This document shows positions 14,051-63,863 of a DNA stretch of 64,000 bases, piece after piece (positions within the stretch are counted from its first letter, which is position 1; each line of letters begins with the position of its first letter). A program made the translations under genes and the position numbers. Source of the DNA: an uncultured Bacilli bacterium (GTDB lineage: Bacteria; Bacillota_I; Bacilli_A; RF39; UBA660); NCBI GenBank assembly GCA_934154785.1, contig CAKPGL010000001.1, forward strand, positions 366,477 to 430,476, given 5' to 3'. The notes below the pieces were generated by a model. The model ran no database searches. It was not told where the DNA came from and was given only the letters and a program-made list of their open reading frames with translations.

Positions 14051-14659
14051 ATGACTGATTTAGATACAATAAAAAATACATTAGATACTAATACATATTT
14101 ATCACAAGAAATGAAAGATAATATCTTTGAATTAGTAGTTCTATTTAATAAAAACTTTAATCAAATAGCACTCAATAATCTTAATGAAAGATTAAAAACT
14201 TTAAAAATAGAAAAAATAAGTAGTTTTTTAAGTAAAAGAGTTTCTAGATATGATATACATAAAAATACTATTTATTTTAATGATAAAGAATTAAAAAAAG
14301 ACTATGATGTTCGTCACATATTAATGTTAGAATTAATAAATATTATTTCATCAAATAATGAATTTAGTGGATTTAACTATGAAGATAAATTTGAAGCTTT
14401 AAATATTGGATATACAGAAATGCTTGCTAATTACTTAGTTGGTAATGATGGAGAAGAAATGATTTATCCACATGAAGCAGTAATGGCCAATTTACTTTCA
14501 ATTGTAATTGGAGAAGATGTACTAGAAAAAGCATATTTTCAAAATGATTATAAATTATTATTAGATAATGTAAAGAAAGTAGGAATTGAATTAGCTGGAA
14601 AAAATGGATTTATGAATTGGAATAGTTTAGCTAATTATTATTCTAATAGGGGAGAATAA
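14051..14659 (+). CDS. hypothetical protein (202 aa)
   Basis: ORF with a GGGTGA RBS. No recognised motif. Confidence 0.4.
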   Translation: MTDLDTIKNTLDTNTYLSQEMKDNIFELVVLFNKNFNQIALNNLNERLKTLKIEKISSFLSKRVSRYDIHKNTIYFNDKELKKDYDVRHILMLELINIISSNNEFSGFNYEDKFEALNIGYTEMLANYLVGNDGEEMIYPHEAVMANLLSIVIGEDVLEKAYFQNDYKLLLDNVKKVGIELAGKNGFMNWNSLANYYSNRGE

Positions 14660-14660
14660 A

Positions 14661-14918
14661 ATGGAATTTTTAAATTGGGGAAACAGTGGCAAATGGAATT
14701 TTGATAAAATTCAAGAAGGTTTTATTCGTATGATTTGTAATTGCGAATTAACTAAAGAACAAGTTGAGAGAATTTCTGCTAATTTAATATTTGATAATAG
14801 ATGTTTAAATAGTAAAGGTTTTAATAAGACATCTATTGAAAGATTTGATTTAGAAAAAGATTCTCTATTAATGGATGCTAGTAAATGGATAGAAGAAACG
14901 CATAAAAAAGTTATTTAG
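14661..14918 (+). CDS. hypothetical protein (85 aa), starting 2 nt after the previous gene
   Basis: ORF with a GGGGAG RBS. No recognised motif. Confidence 0.35.
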   Translation: MEFLNWGNSGKWNFDKIQEGFIRMICNCELTKEQVERISANLIFDNRCLNSKGFNKTSIERFDLEKDSLLMDASKWIEETHKKVI

Positions 14919-16233: not shown

Positions 16234-16273
16234 TCATCTTTTCTTTTTTTTAAACATTATGTTCAAAACTCAT

Positions 16274-16302
16274 TGACTTTTTTTGATAAATTATATAAAA
16301 TT
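16274..16302 (+). promoter_or_regulatory. candidate sigma-A-type promoter for the TasA-like gene array
   Basis: TTGACT followed, about 16 nt later, by a TAAAAT/TATAAA -10 region. It is the only long intergenic region between tig and the array. Confidence 0.3.
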
Positions 16303-16392
16303 ATACATGTAGGATAGGTGAGTGAGTGTCACTGAGCTACATGCAATATTATAGGACGTTATAAGCGAACGTTTTATGGAAGGAGGTATATA

Positions 16393-16980
16393 ATGGAAAA
16401 CAATGATAAGAAGTTTAGAGCTTTAGCGATAGCTGCTATATGTATTGCAATAGTTGGTATTTCAATTGCGTATGCTGCATTAGGTGCTGTATTAAATGTA
16501 ACAGGTACTGCTACTGTTAGTACAGCAAACTCTTGGAATGTTGCGGCAACACAAGGTAGTTGTACTAAAACTGCTGGTAGTCCAAGTGTTACTAAAAATT
16601 TAACTACTGTTGGTCAAACTGCTACTTGGTCAGCTTCATTTGTTGCTCCGGGGGATCAAATAACTTGTACATTTGATTGGACAAATTCTGGTAGTATCGA
16701 CGCAGCAGTTACAAATTTAGTTGTTAATGCTAGTGGCGACGCAAAAGATTATTTTACTTATAATGTTACAATGGGAACTACAGCTTTAAGTGCAGTTGTG
16801 CCTAAAAACAAATATTTAAAAGCTGGTAGTACAAAAACTGTTACTATGGTAGTTACATTTGATGAAAATAGCAACTTAACAAGTCAACAATTAGCTGACC
16901 TTGATACAAAATCTGCAACATTTACAGCTGCTTTTGAATTTGAACAAGCAGATAGTAGTATTACTTATACCGAATTATAA
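16393..16980 (+). CDS. TasA/camelysin-like secreted protein with a SipW-type signal peptide (paralog 1)
   Basis: Basic N-terminus, a hydrophobic segment and VAYA|ALGAVLNVTGTATV. It is immediately upstream of a SipW-like peptidase. Conserved C-terminus ATFTAAFEFEQADSSITYTEL. Confidence 0.5.
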   Translation: MENNDKKFRALAIAAICIAIVGISIAYAALGAVLNVTGTATVSTANSWNVAATQGSCTKTAGSPSVTKNLTTVGQTATWSASFVAPGDQITCTFDWTNSGSIDAAVTNLVVNASGDAKDYFTYNVTMGTTALSAVVPKNKYLKAGSTKTVTMVVTFDENSNLTSQQLADLDTKSATFTAAFEFEQADSSITYTEL

Positions 16981-17069
16981 TAGTTAAAAATTGTGATAGT
17001 CGCTCGCGTTATTATAACCTTTTTAACGTCCATATACAGATATTGATATTATAGATAAGGAAGAAAAAT

Positions 17070-17666
17070 ATGGGAAAAGATAGAAAATTTAGAACATTAG
17101 CTATTGCTGCAATTTGTGTAGCTATAGTTGGCGTATCAGTTGCATACGCAGCATTAAGCGCAGCATTAAATGTAACAGGTACTGCTACTGTTGATACAGC
17201 AGGTTCTTGGAATGTTACTCCTACACCTGTAAAATGTACAGCAAAAAATGGAGCATATTTCATAACAGGAGAAGAACATGTAACTACTAAAGATTTTACT
17301 GCAGTAGGTGGAACTGTTAATTGGGATGCAACATTTACAGCACCAAAACAATCAGTAACTTGTACATTTAGTTGGACTAACGGTGGTTCAATTGATGCTG
17401 CTGTTAAAAAATTAGTTGCTACAGTTAATGGAACTCAAGCTGCTAATTTTGATTACACAGTTACAATGGGAAATACAAAATTAACTCCAACTACACCTAA
17501 TAATAAGGTTTTAAAAGCTGGTAGTACAAAAAATGTTACAATGACAGTTATCTTTGATAAAGATGGTAAACTTGAAACATTACCTACAACAGAAGAAACT
17601 GCAACATTTACAGCTGCTTTTGAATTTGCACAAGCAGATAGTAGTGTAACTTATACTGAATTATAA
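17070..17666 (+). CDS. TasA/camelysin-like secreted protein with a SipW-type signal peptide (paralog 2)
   Basis: Same N-terminal motif (KFRTLAIAAICVAIVGVSVAYAALSAALNVTGTATV) and the same C-terminal ~22 aa as paralogs 1 and 3. Confidence 0.5.
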   Translation: MGKDRKFRTLAIAAICVAIVGVSVAYAALSAALNVTGTATVDTAGSWNVTPTPVKCTAKNGAYFITGEEHVTTKDFTAVGGTVNWDATFTAPKQSVTCTFSWTNGGSIDAAVKKLVATVNGTQAANFDYTVTMGNTKLTPTTPNNKVLKAGSTKNVTMTVIFDKDGKLETLPTTEETATFTAAFEFAQADSSVTYTEL

Positions 17667-17684
17667 AAAATAGGAGATATTAAA

Positions 17685-18284
17685 ATGGAAAAAGATAGAA
17701 AATTTAGAGCATTAGCAATTGCTGCAATTTGTGTAGCAGTAGTTGGTGTATCAGTTGCATATGCTGCATTAGGTGCTGCATTAAATGTAACAGGTACTGC
17801 TACTGTTAGTACTAAAGATTCTTGGAATGTAGTCGCTACAAATGCTACTTGTAGAGCTACAGGACAAGCATATTTCTTAGGAACAGATGACCAACATTTA
17901 ACAGAAAAAGTATTTAATGTTGATGGAACTTCATTAACTTGGGATGCAACATTTACCGCACCAAAAGATGCTGTAACTTGTACATTTACTTGGACTAATG
18001 GTGGTTCAATTGATGCTGCTGTTAAAAAATTAGTTGCTGATAAATCAGGAACTCAAGCTGCTAATTTTACTTATGATATTAAAATTGGTGATACTGCTAT
18101 TACTACAGAAAATATAACTGGTAAATACTTAAAAGCTAAAACTTCAAAAGAAGTTACAATTGTTGTTACTTTTGATAAAGATGGTAATCTTACAACATTA
18201 CCTACAACAAAAGAAACTGCAACATTTACAGCTGCTTTTGAATTTGCGCAAGCAGATAGTAGTACAACTTATACAGAATTATAA
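17685..18284 (+). CDS. TasA/camelysin-like secreted protein with a SipW-type signal peptide (paralog 3)
   Basis: Same conserved N- and C-termini. The central ~100 aa diverge between the paralogs. Confidence 0.5.
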   Translation: MEKDRKFRALAIAAICVAVVGVSVAYAALGAALNVTGTATVSTKDSWNVVATNATCRATGQAYFLGTDDQHLTEKVFNVDGTSLTWDATFTAPKDAVTCTFTWTNGGSIDAAVKKLVADKSGTQAANFTYDIKIGDTAITTENITGKYLKAKTSKEVTIVVTFDKDGNLTTLPTTKETATFTAAFEFAQADSSTTYTEL

Positions 18285-18300
18285 TATTAAAGGGATGTGT

Positions 18301-18324
18301 GAGCAAAAGGAAATCCTTTTGCTC
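18301..18324 (+). promoter_or_regulatory. stem-loop between the subunit genes and the peptidase gene; possible partial terminator or attenuator
   Basis: gagcaaaagg-aaat-ccttttgctc, a 10-bp stem with no downstream T-run. Confidence 0.3.
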
Positions 18325-18370
18325 TCATATCGATTATGTATTTAATACAAGAATATTAAAGGGTGATAAA

Positions 18371-19528
18371 ATGATGATGAGATTAAAAAAAATCTTTAAT
18401 AAAGCATATCTAATGCAATTTTTAATAGTTATCATGGTTTTATTTAATATTTTTGTATTAAATACGTATAGACTAAATACTTGGTATCCAACATTATATT
18501 GGGTTGCTTTAGCAATTATTTCTTATTTGATATTTGGATTAAGGAATAGGGTTCCATCCAAATTTATTGATGTTATACAACTTGTATTTATTTATTGTAT
18601 GGGATATGAACTTATTACTTATCTTTCTGGGTTGATACTGGGGTTTGTAAGAAGTCCTTATTCAATGCAAATAGTAACAATGATTAAAAATATAGCACCA
18701 TTTTTGGTTATGATCATTGCACAAGAAATAACAAGATATGCTGTAGTTACTAGATATAAAAAAAATAAGTATGTTCTGGTATCAATAACGATAGCGATAA
18801 TCTTATATGAAATATCTTATAGTATTGGTTCATATGATTTAAAGTCAGCAGCTGAGATCGTAAAGATGTTAACTATATTGGTTGGTGGCTCAATAACAAA
18901 AAACTGCTTGTGCTCTTATCTTGTATATAGAGCTGACTATAAACCGTCTATTTTATATAGATGTGTATTTGAACTTATTATTTATGTAGTACCTATATAT
19001 CCAAATTTAGGAGAATATATAGAAGCTATGGTAGCTATGATATTTCCAGTATTGCTTTTAGTTTCTATAATGGGATTATACGAGAAAAAGAAATATCGTA
19101 AAGAAAAGAAAACTTGGTTTGAGATGGTTGTTTTGTGGATTCCATCAATTATTGTAATGCTATTTATAGTGACATTACAAACAGGAGTATTTAAGTATAA
19201 AACAATGGCAATTGGTTCTCAATCAATGTATCCTAATATTAATAAGGGTGATGTTGTAGTAATAGATCAGTTCAAAGATGAGGAAAGATGCAAAGAAGTA
19301 GTTGAAGGGGAAGTTTTGGTATTTAAACATGATGGTATTATTATAGTTCACAGGGTTGTTAAAATAACTAAAAAGAATAATAGGTATATATTTAATACCA
19401 AAGGTGATAATAATAATGCTAAAGATTCTTATGATATAGATCAGTCACAGGTAGTTGGAGTTGCCAAGTTTAGAATTCCATTCATTGGTGGTCCATCCGT
19501 TTGGTTGAGTGAAACAATTAACGGTTAG
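18371..19528 (+). CDS. ER/archaeal-type (SipW-like, S26B) signal peptidase I domain fused to an N-terminal ~300-aa polytopic membrane domain of unknown function
   Basis: C-terminal ~110 aa carry GSQSMYP (catalytic Ser), IIVHRVV (His) and TKGDNNNAKDSYD (the GDNN motif typical of SipW/Sec11-type peptidases). The N-terminal part has about 8 hydrophobic helices. Start taken at MMMRLKK after a GGGTGA RBS. Confidence 0.65.
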   Translation: MMMRLKKIFNKAYLMQFLIVIMVLFNIFVLNTYRLNTWYPTLYWVALAIISYLIFGLRNRVPSKFIDVIQLVFIYCMGYELITYLSGLILGFVRSPYSMQIVTMIKNIAPFLVMIIAQEITRYAVVTRYKKNKYVLVSITIAIILYEISYSIGSYDLKSAAEIVKMLTILVGGSITKNCLCSYLVYRADYKPSILYRCVFELIIYVVPIYPNLGEYIEAMVAMIFPVLLLVSIMGLYEKKKYRKEKKTWFEMVVLWIPSIIVMLFIVTLQTGVFKYKTMAIGSQSMYPNINKGDVVVIDQFKDEERCKEVVEGEVLVFKHDGIIIVHRVVKITKKNNRYIFNTKGDNNNAKDSYDIDQSQVVGVAKFRIPFIGGPSVWLSETING

Positions 19529-19542
19529 AAAGGAATGTATTT

Positions 19543-20709
19543 ATGAGTAATGGTAAAGAAAAGAGTTTAAATACTGAAGAGCAAGAAAAAGTTATAATGA
19601 TTAATGATAATAAGAATGATAAGAATAAAAGTAAACTTAATAAGAGAATTTATATAGATACTCCACTTAGGATATTTGTATTAGCTGGTTTTGTATTTAT
19701 ATTTGCTTTTCTTTCATTAATATTTTTGAAAAAAGGATTGGAAACAAAAACATATACTAGTATTTATTATAGTGAAAAAAGTAATCTAGATTATAAGGTT
19801 TACCTAAAAGAGAATCCTTATTTCAATGAACCTTTTCTTACTAAAGGTAATCAGTATATAGCAAGTTTGATTAATTATATTGATGCGGATTTTAGTTATG
19901 ATTTTAGTGCATCTAATTTAATTGATTACCAATTTCGTTATTTAATTAAAGCTGATGTTACAGTCTATGAAAAAGGAGATACATCTAAGATACTTTATAA
20001 GTCATCTGATACTTTACTTCCAGAAAAAACAGTTCAATACTCTGGAGCAAGTACTTACTCTATTAGAGAGAATGTAAAAATAGATTATGATAAATATAAC
20101 AATATTGTATCATCATTTAAGAGGGATTACTCTTTAGCATTAGAGAGTCAATTAAAGGTTACATTATATGTATTTATGAATGGTACTTATAAAGAGATTA
20201 AACAACCATTATCATCTTCTCAAAATATGAGTTTAACTATTCCATTAACTGAACAAACAATTAATATTTCTATGAATTATAAGGAAGTTAATGATGCTAA
20301 CGTTGTTGAGGAATATTCAAATGTTGAAACAATAAATATTGTATTCTTTGTATTATTTGGTGTATCACTTATTGCTTCATTAGTATTAACTGTTAAATTA
20401 GTTAGATTCTTAAATAAAATTAAGACTAAAGGTACTGAGTATGATAGAATATTAGGAACAATTTTAAAAGATTATGAAGGTATAGTAGCACGTGTTAAAA
20501 AAGTTCCAGATTTTAGTGGTAGAACAGTTATTGAGTTAGAAACTTTTGATGAGATATTGGATATTAGTGAAAAACTAGATAAACCAATCCTATTCATAGA
20601 AATGCATAAACATCAAAAGAGTTGGTTTATAATTGTTAATCATAATGAAATATATAAATATTCTTTAAAACTAGTTGATGTTGATAAAGCTAGTAACGAA
20701 AAGAAATAA
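19543..20709 (+). CDS. bitopic membrane protein (hypothetical), a candidate accessory or anchor component of the fibre locus
   Basis: Charged N-terminus, a TM helix at about residues 45-65, a ~190-aa extracytoplasmic domain, a second TM helix (INIVFFVLFGVSLIASLVLTV), then a ~100-aa cytoplasmic tail. Last gene before a terminator. Confidence 0.4.
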   Translation: MSNGKEKSLNTEEQEKVIMINDNKNDKNKSKLNKRIYIDTPLRIFVLAGFVFIFAFLSLIFLKKGLETKTYTSIYYSEKSNLDYKVYLKENPYFNEPFLTKGNQYIASLINYIDADFSYDFSASNLIDYQFRYLIKADVTVYEKGDTSKILYKSSDTLLPEKTVQYSGASTYSIRENVKIDYDKYNNIVSSFKRDYSLALESQLKVTLYVFMNGTYKEIKQPLSSSQNMSLTIPLTEQTINISMNYKEVNDANVVEEYSNVETINIVFFVLFGVSLIASLVLTVKLVRFLNKIKTKGTEYDRILGTILKDYEGIVARVKKVPDFSGRTVIELETFDEILDISEKLDKPILFIEMHKHQKSWFIIVNHNEIYKYSLKLVDVDKASNEKK

Positions 20710-20712
20710 CAT

Positions 20713-20746
20713 AAGCATATGAAGCATAGTTTATATGCTTTTTGTT
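20713..20746 (+). terminator. rho-independent terminator
   Basis: aagcatat...atatgctt stem followed by a T-run. Confidence 0.5.
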
Positions 20747-20822
20747 TTATTATTGTGTAAAACAAAAATGTTTATCTTGTTATTAAAAGGTATTTTAGTG
20801 TATAATATCATTGAGGTTAAAT

Positions 20823-21455
20823 ATGGAAGATTTGTATAAATATGAAAAAGAATTATATAATAAAAATATAGAATATATTGGTGGTGTTGATGAAGTTGGT
20901 AGAGGTCCTTTAGTAGGACCAGTAGTTGCAGCTTGTGTCGTACTACCAAAAGACTTTGTATTAGAAGGATTAACTGATTCTAAAAAATTAAGTGAGAAAA
21001 AAAGAGATTTATTTTATGAATATATTAATGAGCATTCCTTAGCGTGGGATGTTGGTATAATAGGACCAGAAATAATTGATGAGGTTAATATATATGCTGC
21101 AACTAAACTGGCTATGAAAGAAGCTATTAATAAAGTAAGAAAAAAAATAAATGTTGAACATGTATTAATAGATGCTATGCCACTTGAAATTGATATTCCA
21201 ACGACATCAATTATAAAAGGTGATGCAAAAAGTATTTCTATTGCGGCAGCAAGTGTTATGGCAAAAGTAACTAGAGATAGAATGATGTACGAGTTAGATA
21301 AAAAGTATCCAGAGTATGGTTTTGGTTCTCATAAAGGTTATCCTACTAAAAAACATGTAGAAGCTATAAAAAAATATGGTTTAATAGATGGTTATAGAAA
21401 GTCTTATGGTCCTGTAAAAGAAATATTGGAGGGTGAAATTAATGCAACAAAATAG
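20823..21455 (+). CDS. rnhB: ribonuclease HII
   Basis: GVDEVGRGPLVGPVV and the DDSKKLSEKKR motif. Start taken at the ATG after a GAGG RBS; the ORF track starts at an upstream TTG. Confidence 0.85.
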   Translation: MEDLYKYEKELYNKNIEYIGGVDEVGRGPLVGPVVAACVVLPKDFVLEGLTDSKKLSEKKRDLFYEYINEHSLAWDVGIIGPEIIDEVNIYAATKLAMKEAINKVRKKINVEHVLIDAMPLEIDIPTTSIIKGDAKSISIAAASVMAKVTRDRMMYELDKKYPEYGFGSHKGYPTKKHVEAIKKYGLIDGYRKSYGPVKEILEGEINATK

Positions 21456-21693
21456 TTTTCAAAAAAACGGTTTATTAAATGTAAATCCCTCACCAAATAA
21501 TACTTACAATACTGGTAATTTTGGAAGAAGAAGTATACAAGATATAAAAGATGATATGTATAAGGCTAAAACTAAGAATTTTTCTAATTCTAATATGAAT
21601 GATAATAAACAGCCTACTAATTTAAATAATCTTGGTCAAAACGATCATCGGCAAAGAGTAGAAAATTTACAAAACTTTAATAGATGGAAGTGA
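21442..21693 (+). CDS. N/Q-rich low-complexity protein (hypothetical)
   Basis: ORF with a GGAGGGTGA RBS that overlaps the rnhB 3' end. Compositionally biased. Confidence 0.3.
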   Translation: MQQNSFQKNGLLNVNPSPNNTYNTGNFGRRSIQDIKDDMYKAKTKNFSNSNMNDNKQPTNLNNLGQNDHRQRVENLQNFNRWK

Positions 21694-21697
21694 TTAT

Positions 21698-22432
21698 ATG
21701 TTTGATATTTTTAAAAAGAAAAATCAGCCTACTAATGAGTCTGTTCCCCAAAATGACTTTTTAAGTAATGAAAATGCAGCTTTTAATACTGTTTCAAGTG
21801 AAGACGATTCATTTAAGGATTCTCCAGATTATCAAAGTTTAGTGTATCAAGAGCCTGTATATAATGTACCTAAATATAAAGCTAGTAATTTAAGTAATAT
21901 AGGTGTTGTTGTTAATAGTACAGATGTAGGCTTTGATAAAAATGCTATTAACCCTAATATAAAAACTATAGATATACCAAGTAATGAACAAGAAGAATTA
22001 AATAAATCTATAAAAACAGAAGAGCCAGTTGAGTTATTAGATATATTTTCACCTGCAGATGTAGAAAAAGAAGATGTTATACCAGATGTTTTAAATAATA
22101 ATATAAATGATAATATAAATAATAACTCAAATAGTGAAGAAATTAAAAATAGTATTCAAACTGAGAATAAAGAAAAAGAAAAAAATAGCAGTATTTTTAT
22201 GAATAATAACAATGAAGCTATTGGCATTTCTATATTTGGTTCTAATGATGGCGTAACAAACAAGAATAATTATACTTCAAGCAATCAATTTGAAGAACAA
22301 AAACAGGAGTTAACAAAAGAAGTAGAGTATACTAGTGATGGTAATAAGATATGTCCAAATTGTGGTGCAATACTTAAACCTGATGCCCCAGTATGTTTTA
22401 TGTGTAGTAAAAGTTTTATTTTAAAAAAATAA
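21698..22432 (+). CDS. N-rich low-complexity protein with a C-terminal zinc ribbon
   Basis: Ends with CPNCGAILKPDAPVCFMCS (a CxxC...CxxC motif). Good RBS. Confidence 0.4.
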   Translation: MFDIFKKKNQPTNESVPQNDFLSNENAAFNTVSSEDDSFKDSPDYQSLVYQEPVYNVPKYKASNLSNIGVVVNSTDVGFDKNAINPNIKTIDIPSNEQEELNKSIKTEEPVELLDIFSPADVEKEDVIPDVLNNNINDNINNNSNSEEIKNSIQTENKEKEKNSSIFMNNNNEAIGISIFGSNDGVTNKNNYTSSNQFEEQKQELTKEVEYTSDGNKICPNCGAILKPDAPVCFMCSKSFILKK

Positions 22433-39010: not shown

Positions 39011-40045
39011 TTATTTGGCTGAATTTAAACTTTTAACATTAGCGTCATAAACTCTTTGAATATCAGTGTCAACAATGCTTAAGTTATATTTCTTATGAAT
39101 TTCAACCCAAGTTTTTTCTGTTAAATTTTTATCATCAGAAATTTTAGCGCTAACAACGTTATCATATAAAGAGTCTTTCATTTCTTCAAAAGATTTTTTT
39201 GGAGTATGACTAACTTTATAAATAATATGATATCCAAATTTTGATTTAACTGGTTCAGTAGTATATTTTCCTACTTCTAGTTTATTAGCAGCATCCCAGA
39301 ATTCAGTAATATATTTGTCTTTAACAACATTATTGATTACACCACCATTACTAGCGCTTCCAGTATCTTTTGAAAATTCTTTAGCTAGTTTTTCGAAATC
39401 TTCGCCATTATCTAATTTTTTGATGATTTCTTTGGCTTGCTCTAAAGCAGCACCTTCCGCTTTTTTCTTTTCATCGCTAGTAGCATTATCAGCAACGTCT
39501 GGTTTGATTAAGATATGTTTTACACTTAACTCATCAGAAACATGCTTCTCATAATAATTTTTTAATTCTTCATCAGTGATACTTTCTTTGATGTATTTTT
39601 TAGCAACTTGTTCGCGTAAATAACTATTCATTACTACTTCTTTAAAAGCATCAACGCTTTCATAACCATTACTTGTTAATAAATCTTTAAAAGATATAGA
39701 AGAATTCTTATATTGTTCTTCATATTGAGCAATAATAGATTCAGCATATTTTTTAGCGTCATCCTTATTTTCTATTTCTTTATTAATAATAAAGTCATCA
39801 ACTAAAGTAGTTAAAACATTATAACCACCTTGTTTATTTAATTCAGTATATAAGTCTTCAGCAGTAAATTCTTTCCCATCGATGCTAGCAACAACTTGCT
39901 TTCCATCAGATAGTTTTGGATGTGTGCCTTTACAAACTAAGCATATAATAACTGTTAGTAAGACAACTATAATACAAATAAGAGTAATAGTAATATATCT
40001 GTTTTTATCCTTTCCTTCTTGTGATGGTTTGTTAATATTTTTCAT
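39011..40045 (-). CDS. prsA: membrane-anchored parvulin-type peptidyl-prolyl isomerase (PrsA-like foldase)
   Basis: PpiC/parvulin domain (KHILIK...FGYHIIYK), SurA-like N-terminal part, N-terminal membrane anchor. Start taken at MKNINKP after an AAAGGAAG RBS. Confidence 0.7.
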   Translation of the reverse strand: MKNINKPSQEGKDKNRYITITLICIIVVLLTVIICLVCKGTHPKLSDGKQVVASIDGKEFTAEDLYTELNKQGGYNVLTTLVDDFIINKEIENKDDAKKYAESIIAQYEEQYKNSSISFKDLLTSNGYESVDAFKEVVMNSYLREQVAKKYIKESITDEELKNYYEKHVSDELSVKHILIKPDVADNATSDEKKKAEGAALEQAKEIIKKLDNGEDFEKLAKEFSKDTGSASNGGVINNVVKDKYITEFWDAANKLEVGKYTTEPVKSKFGYHIIYKVSHTPKKSFEEMKDSLYDNVVSAKISDDKNLTEKTWVEIHKKYNLSIVDTDIQRVYDANVKSLNSAK

Positions 40046-40202
40046 GATATCTTCCTTTCTTGTTTTTATATTTGTATTCAACCATACAAACAATATAATA
40101 ACAAAAAATAAAATAAAATACAATAATTTTATGATTATTCAAGCACATATATTCTAAAATTCCATAGAATAATGTGAAAAGACAAAAAGGAGGATGATTT
40201 CA

Positions 40203-43571: not shown

Positions 43572-45203
43572 ATGAAAGATAGAAATAAAAGAAAATTAAT
43601 AATATACGCTTTAGTTGGAGTATTGATGCTAACTACAGTTGCGTATGCATCATTACAAACAATATTAAATGTATCAGGTACCGTAGTAAAGAAAGGTAAC
43701 TTGTGGAATATATATTTTACTAATTCCAGTAGTGCTAGTATAGTAGGAACAGCAACAGGTAGTAGTTTAAATATACAAGCATCTAAATTAGATTTTTCAG
43801 TAAGTTTATATAAACCTAGAGATAAAGTAAGTTATACAGTAGATATAAAAAATGGAGGAACTATAGATGCCGTATTAAATAGTATATCCTTAACAGGATT
43901 AGATACTGCAAAAAGTAATAGTCTAAATTATACAGTAACATATTCTAATGGAAGTACTATAAAAGAGGGAGATACTTTAAATGCTGGATCAAGTAAGACA
44001 ATAAAGATAACAGTAGAGTTTGATAGTAGTGCGACTAGTTTACCAGAAAGTGATGTTAACTTAACATTTGGAGTAACCCTAATATATGGACAAACCACAA
44101 GTAGTAGTTCTACTGGAACTAGTGGAATAACAAGTAATAATGTTATTGCGGGAATATATGGGAATAGTACTCAAAATGGAACCCCAACGCCAACTAGTCC
44201 AGTAGAGATACAAAGTGTAGGTGAAAAAAGTACTAATTTAATTCCATTTAATTATACTTCGAGAACTAAAAATGGTGTTACTATTACAGTAAATAATGAT
44301 GGCTCATTAACTTATAATGGTACCGCTACAGCTAGCGTTTCATATGAATTGTTTAATGGAAAGATGTCATTGGTTGAAGGAAAAAAATATTATTTTTCAG
44401 ATTGCTACGCTCAGTTGAATGGTCAATCTGGAAATATTATGACAAATGGTTATACAGCTAAGTCTGGAGATTATATCAGTTTAATTTGGATTTGGAATGC
44501 ATCAGGAACAGTATTTGATAATGTCGTAAAAAAACCAATGATTTCTAATAATCAAATTACAAGTTCTAATTATGAACACCCGGGTTATAAAGTACCAATT
44601 ACAGCAAGTAATGGAAGTGATACTAAGACAACAAACATTTATTTAAAAGAACCATTACGTAAAATGGGAGATTCTGCCGATTACTTAGATTTAACAAATA
44701 AGAAAGTAGTAAGAAATGTAAAAGAGTATAAAATTACTGGTAAAGAACAATGGGCACTAGTTTGGACAACTGATACGACTACAATTTATAAATCAGAGTC
44801 ATTGTTTACTGATGCAAAACCTAATAGTAATAAAACAACTATAGGGACAAAGTCCAATAAATTGGGAGCTATTAGTTACGATGGTTATTCTGCTGGTGTT
44901 GCTTCTATGTGGCAAATAAGAAAAAATGACAATTACAAATATCAAGTAGCAATTAATTACTATAATAATTCTTGTGGTAGCCTTTTTATAAAAAATATAG
45001 ATTATAAATCAGATGTTTCAAACTTTAAGAAATGGTTAAGTGATCAATACGATAGTGGAGATCCCGTGTTAGTGGATTATATCTTAACAACACCAACCGA
45101 AGAAAGTGTAAATATACCAGAGCTACCAAGTCTTACCGGTAATGTAACATACAGTATAGGTACAAGTATAAAACCAAGTAGTATAAATTATACTACTAGA
45201 TAA
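43572..45203 (+). CDS. large secreted protein: SipW-type signal peptide, then a TasA-like N-terminal domain, a Ser/Thr-rich linker and the shared C-terminal module
   Basis: N-terminus KRKLIIYALVGVLMLTTVAYASLQTILNVSGTVV...WNIYF matches the signal motif of the three paralogs at 16.4-18.3 kb. Residues ~40-175 align with those paralogs (for example DIKNGGTIDAVLNS vs SWTNGGSIDAAVKK). The C-terminal ~330 aa are shared with the next gene. Confidence 0.55.
   Translation: MKDRNKRKLIIYALVGVLMLTTVAYASLQTILNVSGTVVKKGNLWNIYFTNSSSASIVGTATGSSLNIQASKLDFSVSLYKPRDKVSYTVDIKNGGTIDAVLNSISLTGLDTAKSNSLNYTVTYSNGSTIKEGDTLNAGSSKTIKITVEFDSSATSLPESDVNLTFGVTLIYGQTTSSSSTGTSGITSNNVIAGIYGNSTQNGTPTPTSPVEIQSVGEKSTNLIPFNYTSRTKNGVTITVNNDGSLTYNGTATASVSYELFNGKMSLVEGKKYYFSDCYAQLNGQSGNIMTNGYTAKSGDYISLIWIWNASGTVFDNVVKKPMISNNQITSSNYEHPGYKVPITASNGSDTKTTNIYLKEPLRKMGDSADYLDLTNKKVVRNVKEYKITGKEQWALVWTTDTTTIYKSESLFTDAKPNSNKTTIGTKSNKLGAISYDGYSAGVASMWQIRKNDNYKYQVAINYYNNSCGSLFIKNIDYKSDVSNFKKWLSDQYDSGDPVLVDYILTTPTEESVNIPELPSLTGNVTYSIGTSIKPSSINYTTR
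44173..44699. repeat. 527-bp direct repeat copy A (~95% identical to copy B; contains a ~230-bp stretch that differs at one base)
   Basis: Codes the shared module TPTPTSPVEIQSVGEKSTNLIPFNY...YLDLTN inside the 43572 gene. Confidence 0.85.
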
Positions 45204-45220
45204 TAGAAAGAAGTGATAAA

Positions 45221-46588
45221 TTGAAAAATAAAGGATTTACTTTAGTAGAACTACTAGCGGTGATAGTAGTTCTATCTATTATCGCTTTAATAGGATATTC
45301 TGCAGTAGGAAATGTAATAAGTTCTACACAAGATAATAGTAATAAGATAACTATGAAAAATTACGCTAAAGCGGTAGATCAAGCGGTGTTCTTATATGAA
45401 ATGAATAATAGTGATAGTAATTTATCAGAATTAAATGCAAACTGGCTAAAAGAAAATGTTAAATTTGAGAAAGCAACCGTAGAATGTGAATATGCAACAT
45501 ATGATAAAACAAGTAGTTTATATGGATGTAAAGTAAATGATAGTGATAAGACATATTGTTATATTAGTGATACAGCAGTTGAATGTAATAAAGATAAATT
45601 ATCTAAAATATATGGAGAAAGTATCCAAAATGGAACACCAACTCCAACTAGTCCAGTGGAGATACAAAGTGTTGGAGAAAAAAGTACTAATTTAATTCCA
45701 TTTAATTATATTTCGAGAACTAAAAATGGTGTTACTATTACAGTAAATAATGATGGCTCATTAACTTATAATGGTACCGCTACAGCTAGCGTTTCATATG
45801 AATTGTTTAATGGAAAGATGTCATTGGTTGAAGGAAAAAAATATTATTTTTCAGATTGCTACGCTCAGTTGAATGGTCAATCTGGAAATATTATGACAAA
45901 TGGTTATACGGCTAAGTCTGGGGATTATATCAGTTTAATTTGGATTTGGAATGAATCAGGTACAGTATTTGACAATGTAGTAAAAAAACCAATGATTTCT
46001 AATAATCAAATTACAAGTTCTAATTATGAACACCCGGGTTATAAAATACCAATTACCGTAAGTAATGGAACAGAAACAAAGACAACAAATATCTATTTAA
46101 AAGAACCATTACGTAAAATAGGAGAATATGCTGACTATTTAGATTTAACAAATGGTAAAGTAACAAGATATGTAACAGAAGTAGTATTTACAGGAAGTGA
46201 AACATGGAGTAAATATACAAGTGTAAGAAATCATTATCAAATAACTGTAAATAATAATTTTTTTGATATACAAAATAATTTAATTCTATCGAATTATTAT
46301 AATAACACTAATACTAAAATTAATTATTATTCGTCAGCAGATTATGATGTAATTTCTGCCGATGGCTATAGAATAAGATTTAAAAATAAAGATATTGAAA
46401 CTTTAGAAGAATGGGAAAATCATGTTTTAAATAAATATAATAGTGGGATACCAATAAAAGTAGTTTATGTATTAATGGCACCAACTGAAGAAAGCATAGA
46501 CGTACCAGAAATACCAAGTCTTACAGGTAATGTAACTTATAGTGTAGATACAAGTATAAAGTCTAGTAAAATGGAATATGGATATTAA
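45221..46588 (+). CDS. type IV pilin-like protein (class III prepilin signal) carrying the same C-terminal module
   Basis: TTG start. MKNKG|FTLVELLAVIVVLSIIALIG is a canonical prepilin peptidase site, with Glu at +5. The downstream ~330 aa are near-identical to the C-terminal part of the 43572 protein. Confidence 0.6.
   Translation: MKNKGFTLVELLAVIVVLSIIALIGYSAVGNVISSTQDNSNKITMKNYAKAVDQAVFLYEMNNSDSNLSELNANWLKENVKFEKATVECEYATYDKTSSLYGCKVNDSDKTYCYISDTAVECNKDKLSKIYGESIQNGTPTPTSPVEIQSVGEKSTNLIPFNYISRTKNGVTITVNNDGSLTYNGTATASVSYELFNGKMSLVEGKKYYFSDCYAQLNGQSGNIMTNGYTAKSGDYISLIWIWNESGTVFDNVVKKPMISNNQITSSNYEHPGYKIPITVSNGTETKTTNIYLKEPLRKIGEYADYLDLTNGKVTRYVTEVVFTGSETWSKYTSVRNHYQITVNNNFFDIQNNLILSNYYNNTNTKINYYSSADYDVISADGYRIRFKNKDIETLEEWENHVLNKYNSGIPIKVVYVLMAPTEESIDVPEIPSLTGNVTYSVDTSIKSSKMEYGY
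45626..46153. repeat. 527-bp direct repeat copy B
   Basis: See copy A. The offset between copies is about 1453 bp. Confidence 0.85.
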
Positions 46589-46656: not shown

Positions 46657-49113
46657 ATGAAAAAAAATAAGAATATTTCTATATTATTAATTATAGGTTT
46701 AATACTTTGTTTAATTTCTATTTTTAGTGGAAAGTTATTTGGTTCTAATGTCGATTGGATAAATCAACATGTTACTTTTGCCAATTATTTTCGAAATAAT
46801 TTTTATAAAACAGGTAAACTTTTACCCGATATAGCATGGAATTTAGGATTAGGACAAAATATATATAATTTTTCTTATTATGGATTATTAAATCCTATTA
46901 TTCTTATTTCTTATTTACTTCCTTTTATTTCTATGACTAATTATATAATGATTAGTAATATTATTTTATATTTACTAAGTATATACTTATTTTATAAATG
47001 GGTTAGTCCAAAATATAGTAGTAAACTATCACTATTATTAACCACTATATTCATGCTTAGTGGACCATTATTTTACCAATTTCATCGTCAAATAATGTTT
47101 GTAAATTATATGCCATTTTTACTTTTGAGTTTAATAGAAATAGATAAAAATAGAAAGAGTAGTTTATTTTTACTAACTATATATATTACTTTAATAATAT
47201 TAAGTAGTTACTATTATAGTGTAGGAGCTATACTATGCATAATAATTTATTATATATTTGTTCATTTTAATGATAGTATTCATGAAAAGTTAAAAATATT
47301 TATTCCTATTATAATTAGTGCTTTGTTATCAGGCATATTAATTATTCCAACTATTGATACTATTATAAGTGGTAGAAATGATATTAAAACTAGTATCAAT
47401 TTGTTAAATTTATTTATTCCTAACTTTGCAATTGGTAAAGTTATATATGGTTCTTATACCTTAGGAATTACTGCAATAATTATACCTAGTTTAGTTAGTT
47501 TATTAGTAAGTAAGGATAAAAAAAATAAATATTTAGGAGCGATTTTGTCAATACTTATTATATTTCCTATTTTTAGATATTTACTAAATGGTTGTTTATA
47601 TATTCGTAGTAAGGCTTTAATACCATTTTTACCATTATATATATATGGAATAGGTATATTTATAAAAGATTGTATTAATAAAGACGTAGATTATAAGTTA
47701 GTAATAAAAGTAACTTTAATAATTGCTTTATTAGGTTTAATTACAGGTTACTTTAATCTAGGATATTATTTAGATATAATTCTTTCTATAATTATCTTGA
47801 TGCTATTTATAAGTGATAAAAAAATATTATCTGGTTTCATAATTATTATCGAAATTCTTGCTATGTTTGTTGCATTTAATATTGATGAAAAATATGTAGA
47901 TAAAAGTGAGTATAATTCTTGGAATTTATACCAAGAAGAGTTAAGCAAGGTTATAGAAAATGATAGGTCTATTTATAGAATATCTGATGTACTAGAACCT
48001 ATTAACAATATTAATTATATTGGAGTTAATAATTATTATAAGGCTTCTTTATATTCATCTACTTATAATTATTACTATTATAATTTTTATCATAATACTT
48101 TAAATGCTAATAATATAACTTATAATCATCTTATGTTAGCGGATACTACAAATTTAATTATGAACCGTTTATTAGGAATAAAGTATATTGTAAGTAATGA
48201 GAAGTTAAATTTTGGATATAGTTTGTTAAGCAACAAAGATAATTTTTATTTATATAAGAATGATTATGCTTTACCTTTAGGTTACGCAACTAATAGAGTA
48301 TATAATAAAGATAGTTTTGCATCATTAAATTATCCTTATAATTTAGAAGTATTACTAACAGGAATAGTTACTGATAATTATACAAATTTTAATTTGGAAT
48401 ATACAAAAGTTCTTGATACTAAATATAATATAACTTTAGGAGATAATATTAGTGTTAGTAATAATGATGATTTTAGTATAGTTCAAGTATTAAAAGATTC
48501 TAGTATAAATTTGTCTTTTAATGAAGTAATTGCCAATAAATTATTATTTATAGAAATTAGTGGATTAGAAGAAAATAGCTGTAATACAGAACTTAGTATT
48601 GAAATAAATGGTGTTAAAAATAAATTAACATGTAAAGAATGGGGGTACCCTAATAAAAATAATACATTTCATTTTTTAGTTAGTGATGATGATATTTCTT
48701 CTTTAAATATTAATATTTCTAAAGGAATTTATAAAATAACAGATTTAAAATTATATACAATGGATAAAGATGTTCTTAATAAAGAATTTGATTTAATGGA
48801 AGATATTCAAATTAATGATAATAAACTAATTGGTAATATTAATGTTACCGATGATGGTTATATGGTTTTATCTATTCCATATGATAAAAACTTTATTGTA
48901 AAAATAGATGACAATGTTGTAGATTATGAATTAGTTAATTCAGGATTTGTTGGCTTTAAAATAAATAAAGGAAATCACAACATTGAACTAACTTATGTAA
49001 ATAGCAAAAAAACTTTAGGTATAATTAGTAGTTCAATCGGTTTATTATGTTTATTTATTTTAATTATTTTTAATTTAAAAAATTATAAATCAATTGACAT
49101 TTTAAAACAATAA
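46657..49113 (+). CDS. YfhO-family GT-C fold membrane glycosyltransferase
   Basis: N-terminal region SGKLFGSNVDWINQHVTFANYF...NLGLGQNIYNFSYYGLLNP matches the YfhO family (B. subtilis YfhO-like). About 13 TM helices plus a large C-terminal extracytoplasmic domain. Confidence 0.75.
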   Translation: MKKNKNISILLIIGLILCLISIFSGKLFGSNVDWINQHVTFANYFRNNFYKTGKLLPDIAWNLGLGQNIYNFSYYGLLNPIILISYLLPFISMTNYIMISNIILYLLSIYLFYKWVSPKYSSKLSLLLTTIFMLSGPLFYQFHRQIMFVNYMPFLLLSLIEIDKNRKSSLFLLTIYITLIILSSYYYSVGAILCIIIYYIFVHFNDSIHEKLKIFIPIIISALLSGILIIPTIDTIISGRNDIKTSINLLNLFIPNFAIGKVIYGSYTLGITAIIIPSLVSLLVSKDKKNKYLGAILSILIIFPIFRYLLNGCLYIRSKALIPFLPLYIYGIGIFIKDCINKDVDYKLVIKVTLIIALLGLITGYFNLGYYLDIILSIIILMLFISDKKILSGFIIIIEILAMFVAFNIDEKYVDKSEYNSWNLYQEELSKVIENDRSIYRISDVLEPINNINYIGVNNYYKASLYSSTYNYYYYNFYHNTLNANNITYNHLMLADTTNLIMNRLLGIKYIVSNEKLNFGYSLLSNKDNFYLYKNDYALPLGYATNRVYNKDSFASLNYPYNLEVLLTGIVTDNYTNFNLEYTKVLDTKYNITLGDNISVSNNDDFSIVQVLKDSSINLSFNEVIANKLLFIEISGLEENSCNTELSIEINGVKNKLTCKEWGYPNKNNTFHFLVSDDDISSLNINISKGIYKITDLKLYTMDKDVLNKEFDLMEDIQINDNKLIGNINVTDDGYMVLSIPYDKNFIVKIDDNVVDYELVNSGFVGFKINKGNHNIELTYVNSKKTLGIISSSIGLLCLFILIIFNLKNYKSIDILKQ

Positions 49114-49149
49114 TTATATACTTTTTATAGAGTAGAAAGTGGGATAAAT

Positions 49150-49752
49150 ATGAGAAGAAGAAGTGAAAATAGTCGTGAAAATAAAAGATATATTAGAGAA
49201 TTAATAATTATGGCTCTTTTAGTTACTATAATTGGTTTAACTGTGTCTTATGTTGCAGCAAGTACAGCCTTTAATATTGTTGGTATTTCAAATGTTAGAA
49301 CGGCAGATTGGAATGTTGGCTTTTCTTCTGCTAAAGTTGTAGCAAAGACAGGTGATGTCAATATAATAAATGATCCTAAGATATCAGGTCAAACTATTAA
49401 TTATGAAGTTGGATTAAAAAATGAAGGCGATAGTGTCACGATTGAAGCTATAGTAAAAAACTATGGAAATTTAGATGCTAAATTAAATTCTTACGTCATT
49501 ACAGGAATTACTAGTAATTATCAAAATAATGTTAGTTACAAGATAACTGATAAAAATGGTAGTGAATTAAAAGAAAACACTATTTTGAAAAGTGCGGAAG
49601 CTGATTATAATCAAAATATAATGCCAATATACATCACAATTACTTATGATAAATTCATATATGAAGATGTAGCGGGCACTATTTCATTTAACTTAGGTTT
49701 AAGTCTTAACTTTGTTCAAAATTGTACTACTTGTAATACAAATTTTAGCTAA
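49150..49752 (+). CDS. small TasA-like secreted protein with a SipW-type signal peptide (fifth member of the family in this window)
   Basis: N-terminus RELIIMALLVTIIGLTVSYVAASTAFNIVGISNVRTADWNVGF has the same motif. 200 aa. Confidence 0.45.
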   Translation: MRRRSENSRENKRYIRELIIMALLVTIIGLTVSYVAASTAFNIVGISNVRTADWNVGFSSAKVVAKTGDVNIINDPKISGQTINYEVGLKNEGDSVTIEAIVKNYGNLDAKLNSYVITGITSNYQNNVSYKITDKNGSELKENTILKSAEADYNQNIMPIYITITYDKFIYEDVAGTISFNLGLSLNFVQNCTTCNTNFS

Positions 49753-49829
49753 ATACTATTTACAAAATTTAGTTTTATGATATAATTATTGGTATAAAAG
49801 AAAAGCGAAGAAAAAGAAGTAGTAATATA

Positions 49830-49997
49830 TTGATGCTTTTAAGAGAGTTTGTGGTTGGTGAAAACAAATAAGTTAGATATATGAATTCGTCTTTGGAGCT
49901 GTTGTTACCGGTAATGCGTTATAGTTTTGAGGTTATATTTTATAACAAATTAAGGTGGTACCACGTAATCACGTCCTTATAGGATGTGATTTTTTTA
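49830..49997 (+). promoter_or_regulatory. T-box riboswitch leader of pheS-pheT
   Basis: Conserved T-box sequence aattaaggtggtaccacg (49948-49966) overlaps the 5' arm of a terminator (aatcacgtcc...ggatgtgatt plus T7). An AGAGAG stem-I element lies upstream, and a TTC-containing candidate specifier sits at about 49888. Confidence 0.6.
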
Positions 49998-50011
49998 TAG
50001 GAGGAATTTTT

Positions 50012-51058
50012 ATGAAAGAAAAAGTTATTGCGATTCAAAAAGAAATTGAAGAAAAATTAAGTAATGTTACTAATTTAAAAGAATTAAATGATATTCGTAT
50101 TTCTTATTTAAGTAAGAAAGGACCTATTTCTGAGTTATCTAGTTCTTTAGCAACTATGACTATTGATGAGAAAAAAGAATTTGGAGCGGTATTAAATAAC
50201 TTAAAAAATACTATTAATAACCAAATTGAATCTATTAAAAATAAATTAGAGCAAGAAGAATTAAATAAAAAGTTAGAAAGTGAAAAAATAGATATTAGTT
50301 TGCCCGCTACTAAAGTACCAGTAGGAGCCCCTAATATTTTAGAGCGTGTGGTTGAAGAAATTGAAGAATTACTAATGAGTATGGGATACGATGTAGTAGA
50401 TGGACCAGAGATAGAGGAAGATAAATTTAATTTTGAAATGCTAAATATTCCAAAGGGACATCCTGCTAGAGATGCTCAAGATACATTCTATATTGAGGAT
50501 GAAAAAATACTTTTACGTAGTCAAACTTCTCCAGTTCAAGCTAGAACGATGTTAAAAGGGGAAGGTAAAACACCTATTAGAATGATTTGCCCTGGTAAAA
50601 CATATCGTAGAGATGATGATGACGCAACACATTCACATCAATTTATGCAAATTGAAGGATTATTGGTTGATAAAAATATTAGTTTATCAGATTTAAAAGG
50701 TACTTTTGATGTTATTGCTAAAAAGTTATTTGGTGAAGATTGTAAAACAAGATTTAGACCTAGTTATTACCAATTCACAGAACCATCAGTAGAAACAGAT
50801 ATTAGTTGCTTTGCTTGTAAAGGAACAGGTTGTAGTTTATGTAAAAATACTGGTTGGATTACAGTATCTGGTGCGGGTATGGTACATCCTAATGTTTTAA
50901 GAAACTGTGGTTATGATCCAGATGTATGGAGTGGCTTTGCCTTTGGATTTGGTGCCGAAAGACTTGCTATGCTTAAATATGGTATTAATGATATTAGAAC
51001 TTTTTATCAAACTGATTTAAGAGAAGTAGGTACATTTGATAGAAAGGATGTTGATTAA
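50012..51058 (+). CDS. pheS: phenylalanine--tRNA ligase alpha subunit
   Basis: Class II aaRS motifs. Start taken at MKEKVIA after a GGAGGA RBS; the ORF track start is upstream inside the T-box leader. Confidence 0.9.
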   Translation: MKEKVIAIQKEIEEKLSNVTNLKELNDIRISYLSKKGPISELSSSLATMTIDEKKEFGAVLNNLKNTINNQIESIKNKLEQEELNKKLESEKIDISLPATKVPVGAPNILERVVEEIEELLMSMGYDVVDGPEIEEDKFNFEMLNIPKGHPARDAQDTFYIEDEKILLRSQTSPVQARTMLKGEGKTPIRMICPGKTYRRDDDDATHSHQFMQIEGLLVDKNISLSDLKGTFDVIAKKLFGEDCKTRFRPSYYQFTEPSVETDISCFACKGTGCSLCKNTGWITVSGAGMVHPNVLRNCGYDPDVWSGFAFGFGAERLAMLKYGINDIRTFYQTDLREVGTFDRKDVD

Positions 51059-63710: not shown

Positions 63711-63786
63711 GCTGAAATAGCTCAGTTGGTAGAGCAGCTCCCTCGTAAAGAGCAGGTCGTAGGTTCGAATCCTATTTTCAGCACCA
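63711..63786 (+). tRNA. tRNA-Thr (anticodon CGT)
   Basis: 76-nt cloverleaf. Acceptor GCTGAAA/TTTCAGC, D-arm GCTC-AGTTGGTA-GAGC, anticodon loop CTCGTAA, T-arm GTAGG-TTCGAAT-CCTAT, encoded CCA. Confidence 0.75.
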
Positions 63787-63789
63787 TTT

Positions 63790-63863
63790 GCTGGTATAGT
63801 ATAATGGTATTACGAGGCCATGGTAAGGCTTTAATCAGTGTTCAATTCACTGTACCAGCACCA
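63790..63863 (+). tRNA. tRNA-Thr (anticodon GGT), with a short or imperfect D-arm
   Basis: Acceptor GCTGGTA/TACCAGC, anticodon arm AGGCC-ATGGTAA-GGCTT, T-arm CAGTG-TTCAATT-CACTG, encoded CCA. Confidence 0.6.

Follow-up and report, generated by a model that had tools for sequence, protein, structure and literature searches.

The DNA analysed is a stretch of 64,000 nucleotides from an uncultured Bacilli bacterium (contig CAKPGL010000001.1, positions 366,477 to 430,476), which is referred to below, at its full length, as the window. Between tig, the gene for trigger factor, and rnhB, five co-directional genes encode three paralogous subunit proteins, a signal peptidase and a DUF5305 protein, and are followed by a terminator. 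This operon probably specifies a secreted AbpX-type fibre, within the TasA superfamily, that would be built by donor-strand complementation. The AbpX protein of Pyrodictium abyssi, described in a preprint of January 2026, forms calcium-dependent donor-strand fibrils, belongs to the TasA superfamily (PDB 9SJ2, 9RHP) and has relatives in archaea and in Bacillota/Chloroflexota; it polymerises by donor-strand complementation, and by cryo-electron microscopy residues W2, L6, L8, A10 and I12 of its donor strand are inserted in the next protomer (10.64898/2026.01.04.697558).

An extracellular fibre had already been proposed for this locus in an initial annotation made from the sequence. Homology supports the fibre itself, but the nearest system is AbpX and not tapA-sipW-tasA. 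The three tandem paralogues, the endoplasmic reticulum (ER)-type peptidase gene, the membrane-protein gene and the terminator were all found where that annotation had placed them. It had also noted that clpP/clpX do not follow tig, which holds, the next gene after the operon being rnhB.

The subunit family and its homology to AbpX

The three subunit genes lie on the forward strand at 16393 to 16980 (195 residues), 17070 to 17666 (198 residues) and 17685 to 18284 (199 residues), and their products match the family profile with E values of 1.3e-71, 3.7e-70 and about 1e-70, respectively. The third, whose sequence was the one modelled, is 59% identical to the first and 68-69% identical to the second. 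None of the three rose above any Pfam or NCBIfam threshold, and faint matches were obtained to CARDB, SpaA-like immunoglobulin (Ig) domains and Peptidase_M73 (E 0.05). Matches to DUF11 and to CLIPPER/DUF7507 isopeptide domains were also weak (best E 1.2e-3 for the latter). A search for a SipW-cognate signal, as suggested in the initial annotation, returned neither a TIGR04088-type nor any other exported-by-SipW model of NCBIfam at E <= 1.

The N-terminal region is the best conserved part of these proteins. In paralogue 1, the signal peptide MENNDKKFRALAIAAICIAIVGISIAYA is followed by the predicted mature N-terminus ALGAVLNVTGTATV. In the close family, pairwise identity is 90% over residues 1-27 (MEKDRKFRALAIAAICVAIVGVSVAYA), 60% over the next 22 residues and 33% in the core. 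Within the signal-peptide stretch, 6-11 synonymous codon differences separate the three paralogues, so that its conservation points to selection on the protein rather than to recent gene conversion. In the cleavage context SVAYA|AL, P2 is aromatic, P1 and P1' are both Ala and P2' is bulky and hydrophobic, and an A-x-A site with a small P1' residue was found in 72 of the 74 family members. After A-[YF]-A, a conserved alternating segment follows (A-L-x-x-x-L-x-[IV]-x-G-T-A-x-V), in which L33 does not vary within the close family and hardly varies within the broad one, with G37 likewise conserved; in mature numbering, L2, A4, L6, V8, A12 and V14 form an amphipathic strand.

The link to AbpX was obtained by profile comparison. 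When a profile of the close family was compared with the sequences of the PDB, AbpX was the best solved relative (9SJ2, E 9.3e-5; 9RHP, E 1.5e-3), and the top four matches of a broader, 74-sequence profile were AbpX twice (E 1e-3 and 1.4e-2) and TasA twice (E 0.03-0.04). The full AbpX precursor of P. abyssi and four relatives were recovered as a target set for hhalign, against which the family aligned over 155 columns with 96.0% probability (E 4.3e-9) and the close family with 93% probability. The alignment starts within the signal helix, spans the cleavage site and the core, and places VGVSVAYA|ALGAALNV on AIGLTYA|QWSETLSL, that is, AYA|AL on TYA|QW and ALGAALNV on the donor strand QWSETLSL. 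Therefore, the predicted cleavage site corresponds to the start of mature AbpX and the conserved segment to the AbpX donor strand, in support of the AYA|AL cleavage and the N-terminal donor strand put forward in the initial annotation.

The fold predicted for paralogue 3 by AlphaFold2 (AF2) is a beta-sandwich core that spans residues 49-199, and to residues 1-48 no regular secondary structure is assigned. The mean predicted local distance difference test (pLDDT) score was 85.4, with values above 90 in the core and below 50 in the signal peptide (1-27). When this model was compared with known structures, donor-strand filament subunits were ranked first by Foldseek, but scores were modest, with a best E of only 5e-3 and nothing in the PDB at E <= 1e-3, and generic Ig-like domains were close competitors. 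AbpX was not among the matches of either fold search, its entries being possibly too recent for those libraries.

The apparent size of the family depended on the method. The family seemed tiny in a word-indexed homologue search, with 61 unannotated relatives, whereas it grew to thousands when 1.84 billion cluster representatives were searched exhaustively with a profile, with 6,792 matches at E <= 1e-3 and 4,114 at E <= 1e-10; these counts are upper bounds, because some matches are generic DUF11/CARDB-type repeats, as in the giant surface protein P0228. In a scan of GTDB genomes with narrow patterns, one locus only was found, in a metagenome-assembled genome (MAG) of uncultured Bacilli. Many of the matches are about 175-210 residues long, and others reach 350-2,000 residues, with the module of about 190 residues at the N-terminus and adhesin-like domains after it, which points to a wide range of tip adhesins based on the fibre system of the subunits. 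Long relatives with the N-terminal module include P0229-P0355 and the products of L007 9200-11206, L008 9315-11702, L010 3634-5163 and L011 3762-5240; the C-terminal parts of the 350-2,000-residue relatives show leucine-rich-like or glycine-rich-like repeats, or weak matches to Laminin_G of Pfam.

A fused signal peptidase, a DUF5305 protein and a recurring gene order

The peptidase gene (18371 to 19528, forward strand; 385 residues) starts at the ATG at 18371, which has a ribosome-binding site, AGGGTG, ahead of it and is the start called in public assemblies. The protein is predicted to consist of eight N-terminal transmembrane helices (residues ~1-240), an anchor helix (249-271) and a C-terminal catalytic domain of about 110 residues, and its length is constant in the family, at about 375-385 residues in 209 matches. 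In the AF2 model (pLDDT 88.1), nine long helices precede the catalytic domain; the count becomes ten if helices 2-12 and 14-30 are taken separately, and 'ten TM helices' is the description given for AbpX-linked signal peptidases (10.64898/2026.01.04.697558). The catalytic domain is placed outside the cell on the basis of the basic N-terminus and of a KKKYRKEKK loop before the last helix.

The catalytic domain is, as judged from its match to TIGR02228 (87.9 bits against a cut-off of 51.85; E 6e-25) and from its GDNN motif, an ER/archaeal-type signal peptidase I. Its best matches among solved structures were human SEC11C and SEC11A (SEC11C, E 3.6e-21), and Ser285, His327, Asp346 and Asp352 are invariant in 64 homologues. 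The gene had been annotated as SipW-type, of which the ER-type domain with GDNN stands, but a protein of 385 residues with about nine transmembrane helices is not a small SipW-like enzyme. Compared by hhalign with the abpX-linked peptidase of P. abyssi (380 residues), it aligned with 99.3% probability over 311 columns, including the membrane domain and its ExxR pair.

For the membrane domain, no sequence match was found in Pfam or the PDB, and no Pfam CPBP model was reached by any of the 64 homologues. Fold comparison revealed an eight-helix CPBP/CAAX-protease fold, with SpdC as the best structural match; the domain thus shares the CPBP fold and is not a member of the family by sequence. The canonical CAAX motifs are EExxxR, FxxxH and HxxxD/N, of which only a QE119xxR122 remnant is present, on the fourth helix. 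Of the 64 homologues, 63 keep Glu119 and Arg122 and 59 have an acidic residue at position 147; Asn178 and Arg197 are conserved, and no histidine is. As QExxR is all that is left and a conserved histidine is missing, the domain most likely lacks catalytic activity, as SpdC, LnsB and SpbR do.

SpbR, a degenerate CAAX-like protein, binds to the signal peptidase SpsB, whose cleavage activity it controls (PMC12260438). In the pairs SpbR-SpsB and SpdC-SagB (PDB 6U0O) of Staphylococcus aureus, a CPBP fold with degenerate motifs, as also seen here, serves as the non-catalytic partner of a single-pass membrane enzyme. They differ from the present case in that the CPBP-fold domain of the window is fused with its peptidase, which is of the ER type and not of the P type; thus, a CPBP-fold partner and a signal peptidase that are separate in SpbR-SpsB form one polypeptide here. 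Unlike the members of the CPBP families, the membrane domain has no detectable sequence similarity to any of them. In the literature searched, no paper tied a CPBP domain to a TasA-type signal peptidase, and the AbpX preprint is silent on the CPBP fold.

The last gene of the operon (19543 to 20709, forward strand; 388 residues) encodes a DUF5305 protein (PF17231, E 9.4e-13; 48.5 bits against a cut-off of 29). It had been annotated as a bitopic membrane protein, but two membrane spans are predicted (~44-62 and ~266-284), with a short cytoplasmic N-terminus, an extracytoplasmic domain of about 190 residues and a cytoplasmic C-terminal part of about 100 residues. DUF5305 is carried by most AbpX loci, in which it has been proposed as a signal-peptidase accessory (10.64898/2026.01.04.697558). 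The same has been proposed in Tafi loci, and the domain is sometimes fused to the peptidase (PMC11821415). The layout predicted for the product of the 19543 gene agrees with these accounts, and the protein is proposed to be an accessory subunit of the peptidase.

The gene order was compared in seven independent contexts, namely the window together with the syntenic uncultured-Bacilli MAG L001, counted as one, and six loci (L006-L011) chosen by distant peptidase homologues (25-40% identity). In all seven, one to three small family members lie directly 5' of the fused peptidase. A DUF5305 gene comes after the peptidase in six; in L010, the remaining locus, the gene at that place is about as long and has no Pfam match on record. 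At four of the loci, flanking proteins of 493-796 residues begin with the same subunit module, which fits the pattern expected for tip or minor subunits.

Two more members of the subunit family were found in the window, on the forward strand, 23-29 kb 3' of the operon. The first (43572 to 45203; 543 residues; family profile E 1.6e-30) combines an N-terminal module of signal, donor strand and jelly-roll with a C-terminal domain of about 350 residues, and is a candidate tip or adhesin subunit served by the 18371 peptidase. The second (49150 to 49752; 200 residues; E 5.7e-28) stands out by its longer basic N-region and by an aberrant cleavage context (SYVA|AS), and is a candidate minor or base subunit. 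As the 18371 gene was the only match to the peptidase profile in the window, its product presumably serves all five family proteins.

Proposed mechanism, rival explanations and known systems

The mechanism and the roles of the individual proteins are inferred here from homology, beyond the homologies, gene order, fold assignments and conservation patterns that the analysis itself provides. The three precursors would be inserted Sec-dependently in the membrane by their near-invariant N-terminal signal-anchor helix, and their extracytoplasmic part would fold as an incomplete beta-sandwich (jelly-roll). The CPBP-fold domain would most likely recognise the signal helix in the membrane, as a scaffold that positions or gates cleavage, and the dedicated peptidase would then cut after Ala-Tyr-Ala27 by means of its SEC11-like Ser285/His327/Asp domain. 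The amphipathic strand A28-V41, ALGAALNVTGTATV, would thereby be freed to complete the fold of a neighbouring subunit, giving a head-to-tail polymer. The three paralogues could be alternative or mixed major subunits, with the 543-residue and 200-residue proteins as tip and minor (or base) components, DUF5305 as an accessory subunit, and an RNA hairpin after the subunit genes keeping subunit transcripts in excess. Two of these steps have precedents: in haloarchaea, deletion of TafD blocks TafA processing and filament formation (PMC11821415), and donor-strand complementation is how AbpX polymerises (10.64898/2026.01.04.697558).

Several observations weigh against a fibre of this type. The link to AbpX and TasA is seen by profiles only, single-sequence searches reaching neither. 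The aromatic residue at mature position 2 and the acidic residue at position 4 by which calcium-responsive, AbpX-like proteins have been defined are absent, positions 2 and 4 being Leu and Ala in all three paralogues; among the 74 family members, position 2 is aromatic in 10 (14%) and position 4 acidic in 4 (5%). Mature AbpX has 163 residues, and the features used to recognise AbpX-like proteins include a pI of ~4.0 and ~15% Asp+Glu (10.64898/2026.01.04.697558), whereas the three subunits have pI values of 4.40, 5.06 and 4.77 with 7.8%, 8.8% and 11.0% Asp+Glu. Neither a cell-wall anchor (SLH, LPXTG) nor a regulator was found in the operon.

These points bear on how a fibre operon of the TasA superfamily should be weighed against other explanations of the same genes. 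The one that deserves most attention, though we think it unlikely, is that the subunits are secreted or surface Ig-like or CARDB-like proteins (adhesins, coat proteins or variable antigens) that do not polymerise, the peptidase being used for their export only. The weak CARDB, DUF11, DUF7507 and SpaA-like Ig matches would fit this, as would the DUF11-type repeats of giant surface proteins (P0228) that the profile also picks, the N-terminal position of the module in many large adhesin-like relatives, a core as variable (33% identity) as would be expected of surface antigens and the modest fold-search scores against filament subunits. A conserved amphipathic segment after the cleavage site, with L33 invariant and G37 conserved, that aligns with the AbpX donor strand argues otherwise, and so do fold matches that are, at the top, specifically donor-strand filament subunits, and a set of tandem small subunits with larger proteins of the same module, which is the pattern of major, minor and tip pilins. 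The subunits could instead keep their signal helix as type II membrane proteins, with the neighbouring peptidase acting on other substrates, and the exceptional conservation of the helix could indeed mean an intramembrane job. This is very improbable, given that A-x-A with a small P1' occurs in 72 of 74 members, that the site aligns with the cleavage site of AbpX, studied as a 163-residue mature form, that the peptidase gene stands beside the subunit genes in 7/7 loci and that TafD-dependent processing of TafA is a direct precedent.

Similarly, there is very little probability that the locus is a canonical TasA/camelysin fibre with SipW, orthologous to tapA-sipW-tasA of Bacillus, sipW-tasA-calY of B. 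cereus or sipW-bsaA of C. perfringens. The superfamily is common to both, TasA is in the top four PDB matches of the broad profile, the cleavage contexts are alike, Peptidase_M73 is weakly matched by 7 of the 74 family members (best E 1.6e-4) and the SipW equivalog NF046067 reaches E 4.6e-19 on the catalytic domain. Yet that equivalog scores 68.7 bits against a cut-off of 190, and the matches to Peptidase_M73 (13.8 bits against 22.5) and to the TasA equivalog NF046066 (12.2 bits against 450) were both obtained with paralogue 1 only, so that orthology is already disfavoured by the profile scores, and the divergence from TasA/CalY noted in the initial annotation is borne out. Moreover, no TapA-like gene is present, the peptidase has an extra eight-helix domain, a DUF5305 gene follows and the match to AbpX is clearly better than that to TasA. 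A further alternative touches one step only, as the CPBP-fold domain might be an active second protease that, for example, clears the cut signal peptide. The polar residues conserved in it (Glu119/Arg122, acidic 147, Asn178, Arg197), the ExxR pair kept in the archaeal AbpX-linked peptidase and the activity of certain bacterial CAAX-like proteins speak for this; nevertheless, we consider it doubtful, since motif 2 (FxxxH), motif 3 (HxxxD/N) and any conserved histidine are missing, motif 1 is QExxR instead of EExxxR, no Pfam CPBP model is reached, and SpdC, to which the structure is most similar, serves as a scaffold without catalysis, like SpbR and LnsB.

Other candidates were rejected. A type IV pilin or a sortase pilus was discarded because the subunits have neither the G|FTLxE prepilin motif nor LPXTG, and no sortase or prepilin (A24) peptidase was among the matches in scans of the window. 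An exosortase/archaeosortase was discarded because the membrane domain of the peptidase lacks the conserved Cys/Arg/His set.

With AbpX loci, the operon shares subunits whose homology extends to the signal helix, to the cleavage site behind an aromatic-Ala pair and to the donor strand, together with a peptidase of about 380 residues in which multiple membrane helices precede an ER-type catalytic domain, the DUF5305 gene, and small 'minor' paralogues and larger tip-like proteins with a common module. It differs in the residues at mature positions 2 and 4 (Leu/Ala, not aromatic/acidic), in the lower acidity of the subunits (pI 4.4-5.1 and 8-11% Asp+Glu, against ~4.0 and ~15%), in a pairwise similarity that is undetectable, in the missing anchor and regulators, and in its host, which is a low-GC uncultured Bacilli lineage and not a thermophile. 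Each of the three components has its homologue in AbpX loci, but three AbpX-defining features are absent. The locus was therefore placed in a sister family of the TasA superfamily with an AbpX-type processing module, and was filed neither as a strict AbpX nor as an orthologue of TasA/SipW.

The Bacillus subtilis TasA/SipW/TapA system (PDB 8AUR, 5OF1) has in common with the window the superfamily, a fibre that is, or here would be, formed by donor-strand exchange and an adjacent, dedicated ER-type Ser/His signal peptidase. The cleavage site of TasA, a SipW substrate, is GGTWA|AF (PMC10269814), which also has an aromatic P2 and a bulky hydrophobic P2'. However, the proteins of the window fall under every TasA, camelysin and SipW family threshold, TapA is missing, and SipW is an enzyme of about 190 residues whereas the window peptidase has 385, an additional CPBP-fold domain of eight helices and a DUF5305 partner. 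The Tat-fimbriae of haloarchaea (Tafi: subunits TafA/C/E, peptidase TafD, DUF5305 protein TafG; PMC11821415, PDB 9P0A) combine donor-strand filament subunits with a dedicated S26 peptidase and DUF5305, a combination also proposed here, but Tafi subunits use the Tat pathway and are more distant in sequence, and TafD has four membrane helices and another domain order.

A variant of the proposed mechanism, to which we give little credence at present, is that the CPBP domain acts as an intramembrane receptor for the signal helix and couples cleavage to growth of the fibre from its base. The newest subunit would be tethered by its uncleaved anchor until cleavage by the peptidase lets its donor strand slip into the groove of the subunit that arrives next. 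In this variant, DUF5305 would be a chaperone or accessory, the 200-residue paralogue an uncleaved base and the 543-residue paralogue a tip adhesin.

Operon signals, neighbouring genes and significance

The tig gene (TIGR00115, E 1.4e-122) ends at 16233, and a sigma-70-like promoter site is found in the spacer that follows, at 16273 to 16301 on the forward strand, 92 nt 5' of the first subunit gene. It consists of a TTGACT -35 element, a 17-nt spacer and a TAAAAT -10 element, with 10 of 12 matches to the consensus. The single promoter proposed in the initial annotation thus has a sigma-70-like site to go with it, but statistical backing is lacking: as such sites were rarer in the real sequence than in shuffled sequence in the promoter scan, the site is a plausible promoter only. 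The leader of about 90 nt between this site and the first subunit gene (16302-16392) contains two predicted hairpins (-23 kcal/mol, z -3.0) and matched no Rfam family, and a strong Shine-Dalgarno sequence, AAGGAGG, precedes the start of that gene.

An RNA hairpin is predicted at 18294 to 18331 on the forward strand, in the gap that separates the third subunit gene from the peptidase gene. Although it had been annotated as weak, it is strong (-28 kcal/mol, z -6.58), none of 200 shuffled sequences being as stable, and it has no canonical U tract. The hairpin may act by attenuation or by stabilising 3' ends, and so keep subunit mRNA in excess over that for the processing machinery. By eye, without folding, a counterpart with the same stem sequence was recognised in L001 and others with different sequences in L006 and L007, and no evident hairpin was seen at the subunit-peptidase junction of L008. 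The operon closes with an intrinsic-terminator-like hairpin followed by the TTTTTGTTTT T run (20713 to 20750, forward strand; -16.7 kcal/mol, z -3.79), and rnhB starts near 20811.

The surroundings of the two unlinked family members hold a putative second type of fibre protein. At 43572-46588, two adjacent genes have a common C-terminal passenger of about 330-350 residues, which is 64% identical overall and nearly identical over about 180 residues, and their N-terminal modules differ, being TasA/AbpX-like in the 543-residue protein and a type IV pilin module, MKNKGFTLVELLAV, in the 455-residue one (N_methyl, E 1.6e-7). It thus seems that one 'head' is presented by two fibre systems that are unrelated to each other. 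A polytopic membrane protein of the YfhO family (PF09586, E 2e-51) is encoded between the pilin-like gene and the 200-residue member (46657-49752), where YfhO-type glycosylation may have a link to these surface proteins, and a T-box leader (RF00230, 113 bits; 49799-49981) lies immediately 5' of an open reading frame (ORF) at 49955-51058 that is pheS-like by eye.

Elsewhere in the window, ORFs of 202 and 85 residues lie between a ClpC-like ATPase gene and tig (14051-14918); their position is kept in related assemblies, and no significant family match to them was found in Pfam or NCBIfam. Two Asn-rich low-complexity proteins, both kept in L001, are encoded 3' of rnhB (21433-22432), the second with a zinc-ribbon-like CPNCG...CFMC at its end. 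A PrsA-like PPIC-type peptidyl-prolyl isomerase, which could aid the folding of secreted proteins, is encoded on the reverse strand at 39011-40123 (Rotamase_3, E 5e-23), and two tRNA genes lie at 63711-63860.

Bacillus biofilms and several archaeal matrices have fibres of the TasA superfamily as their protein scaffolds. Work on the AbpX branch has so far been limited to one hyperthermophilic archaeon, and in the present locus the same three-part machine of subunits, multi-helix signal peptidase and DUF5305 is found in uncultured low-GC Bacilli. New with respect to AbpX are the absence of the aromatic/acidic signature from the donor strand, the near-invariant signal peptide and the two more family members 23-29 kb downstream, and the missing calcium/aromatic signature suggests another trigger of assembly. 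The CPBP fold of the peptidase offers a concrete idea of how its substrates may be recognised, in parallel to SpbR-SpsB and SpdC-SagB of S. aureus. The subunit family is large, yet has no Pfam model. If the fibre did grow from its base in the way outlined above, polymerisation driven by a signal peptidase would be a third logic of Gram-positive fibres, beside sortase and type IV, and would apply to a family of >4,000 sequence clusters.

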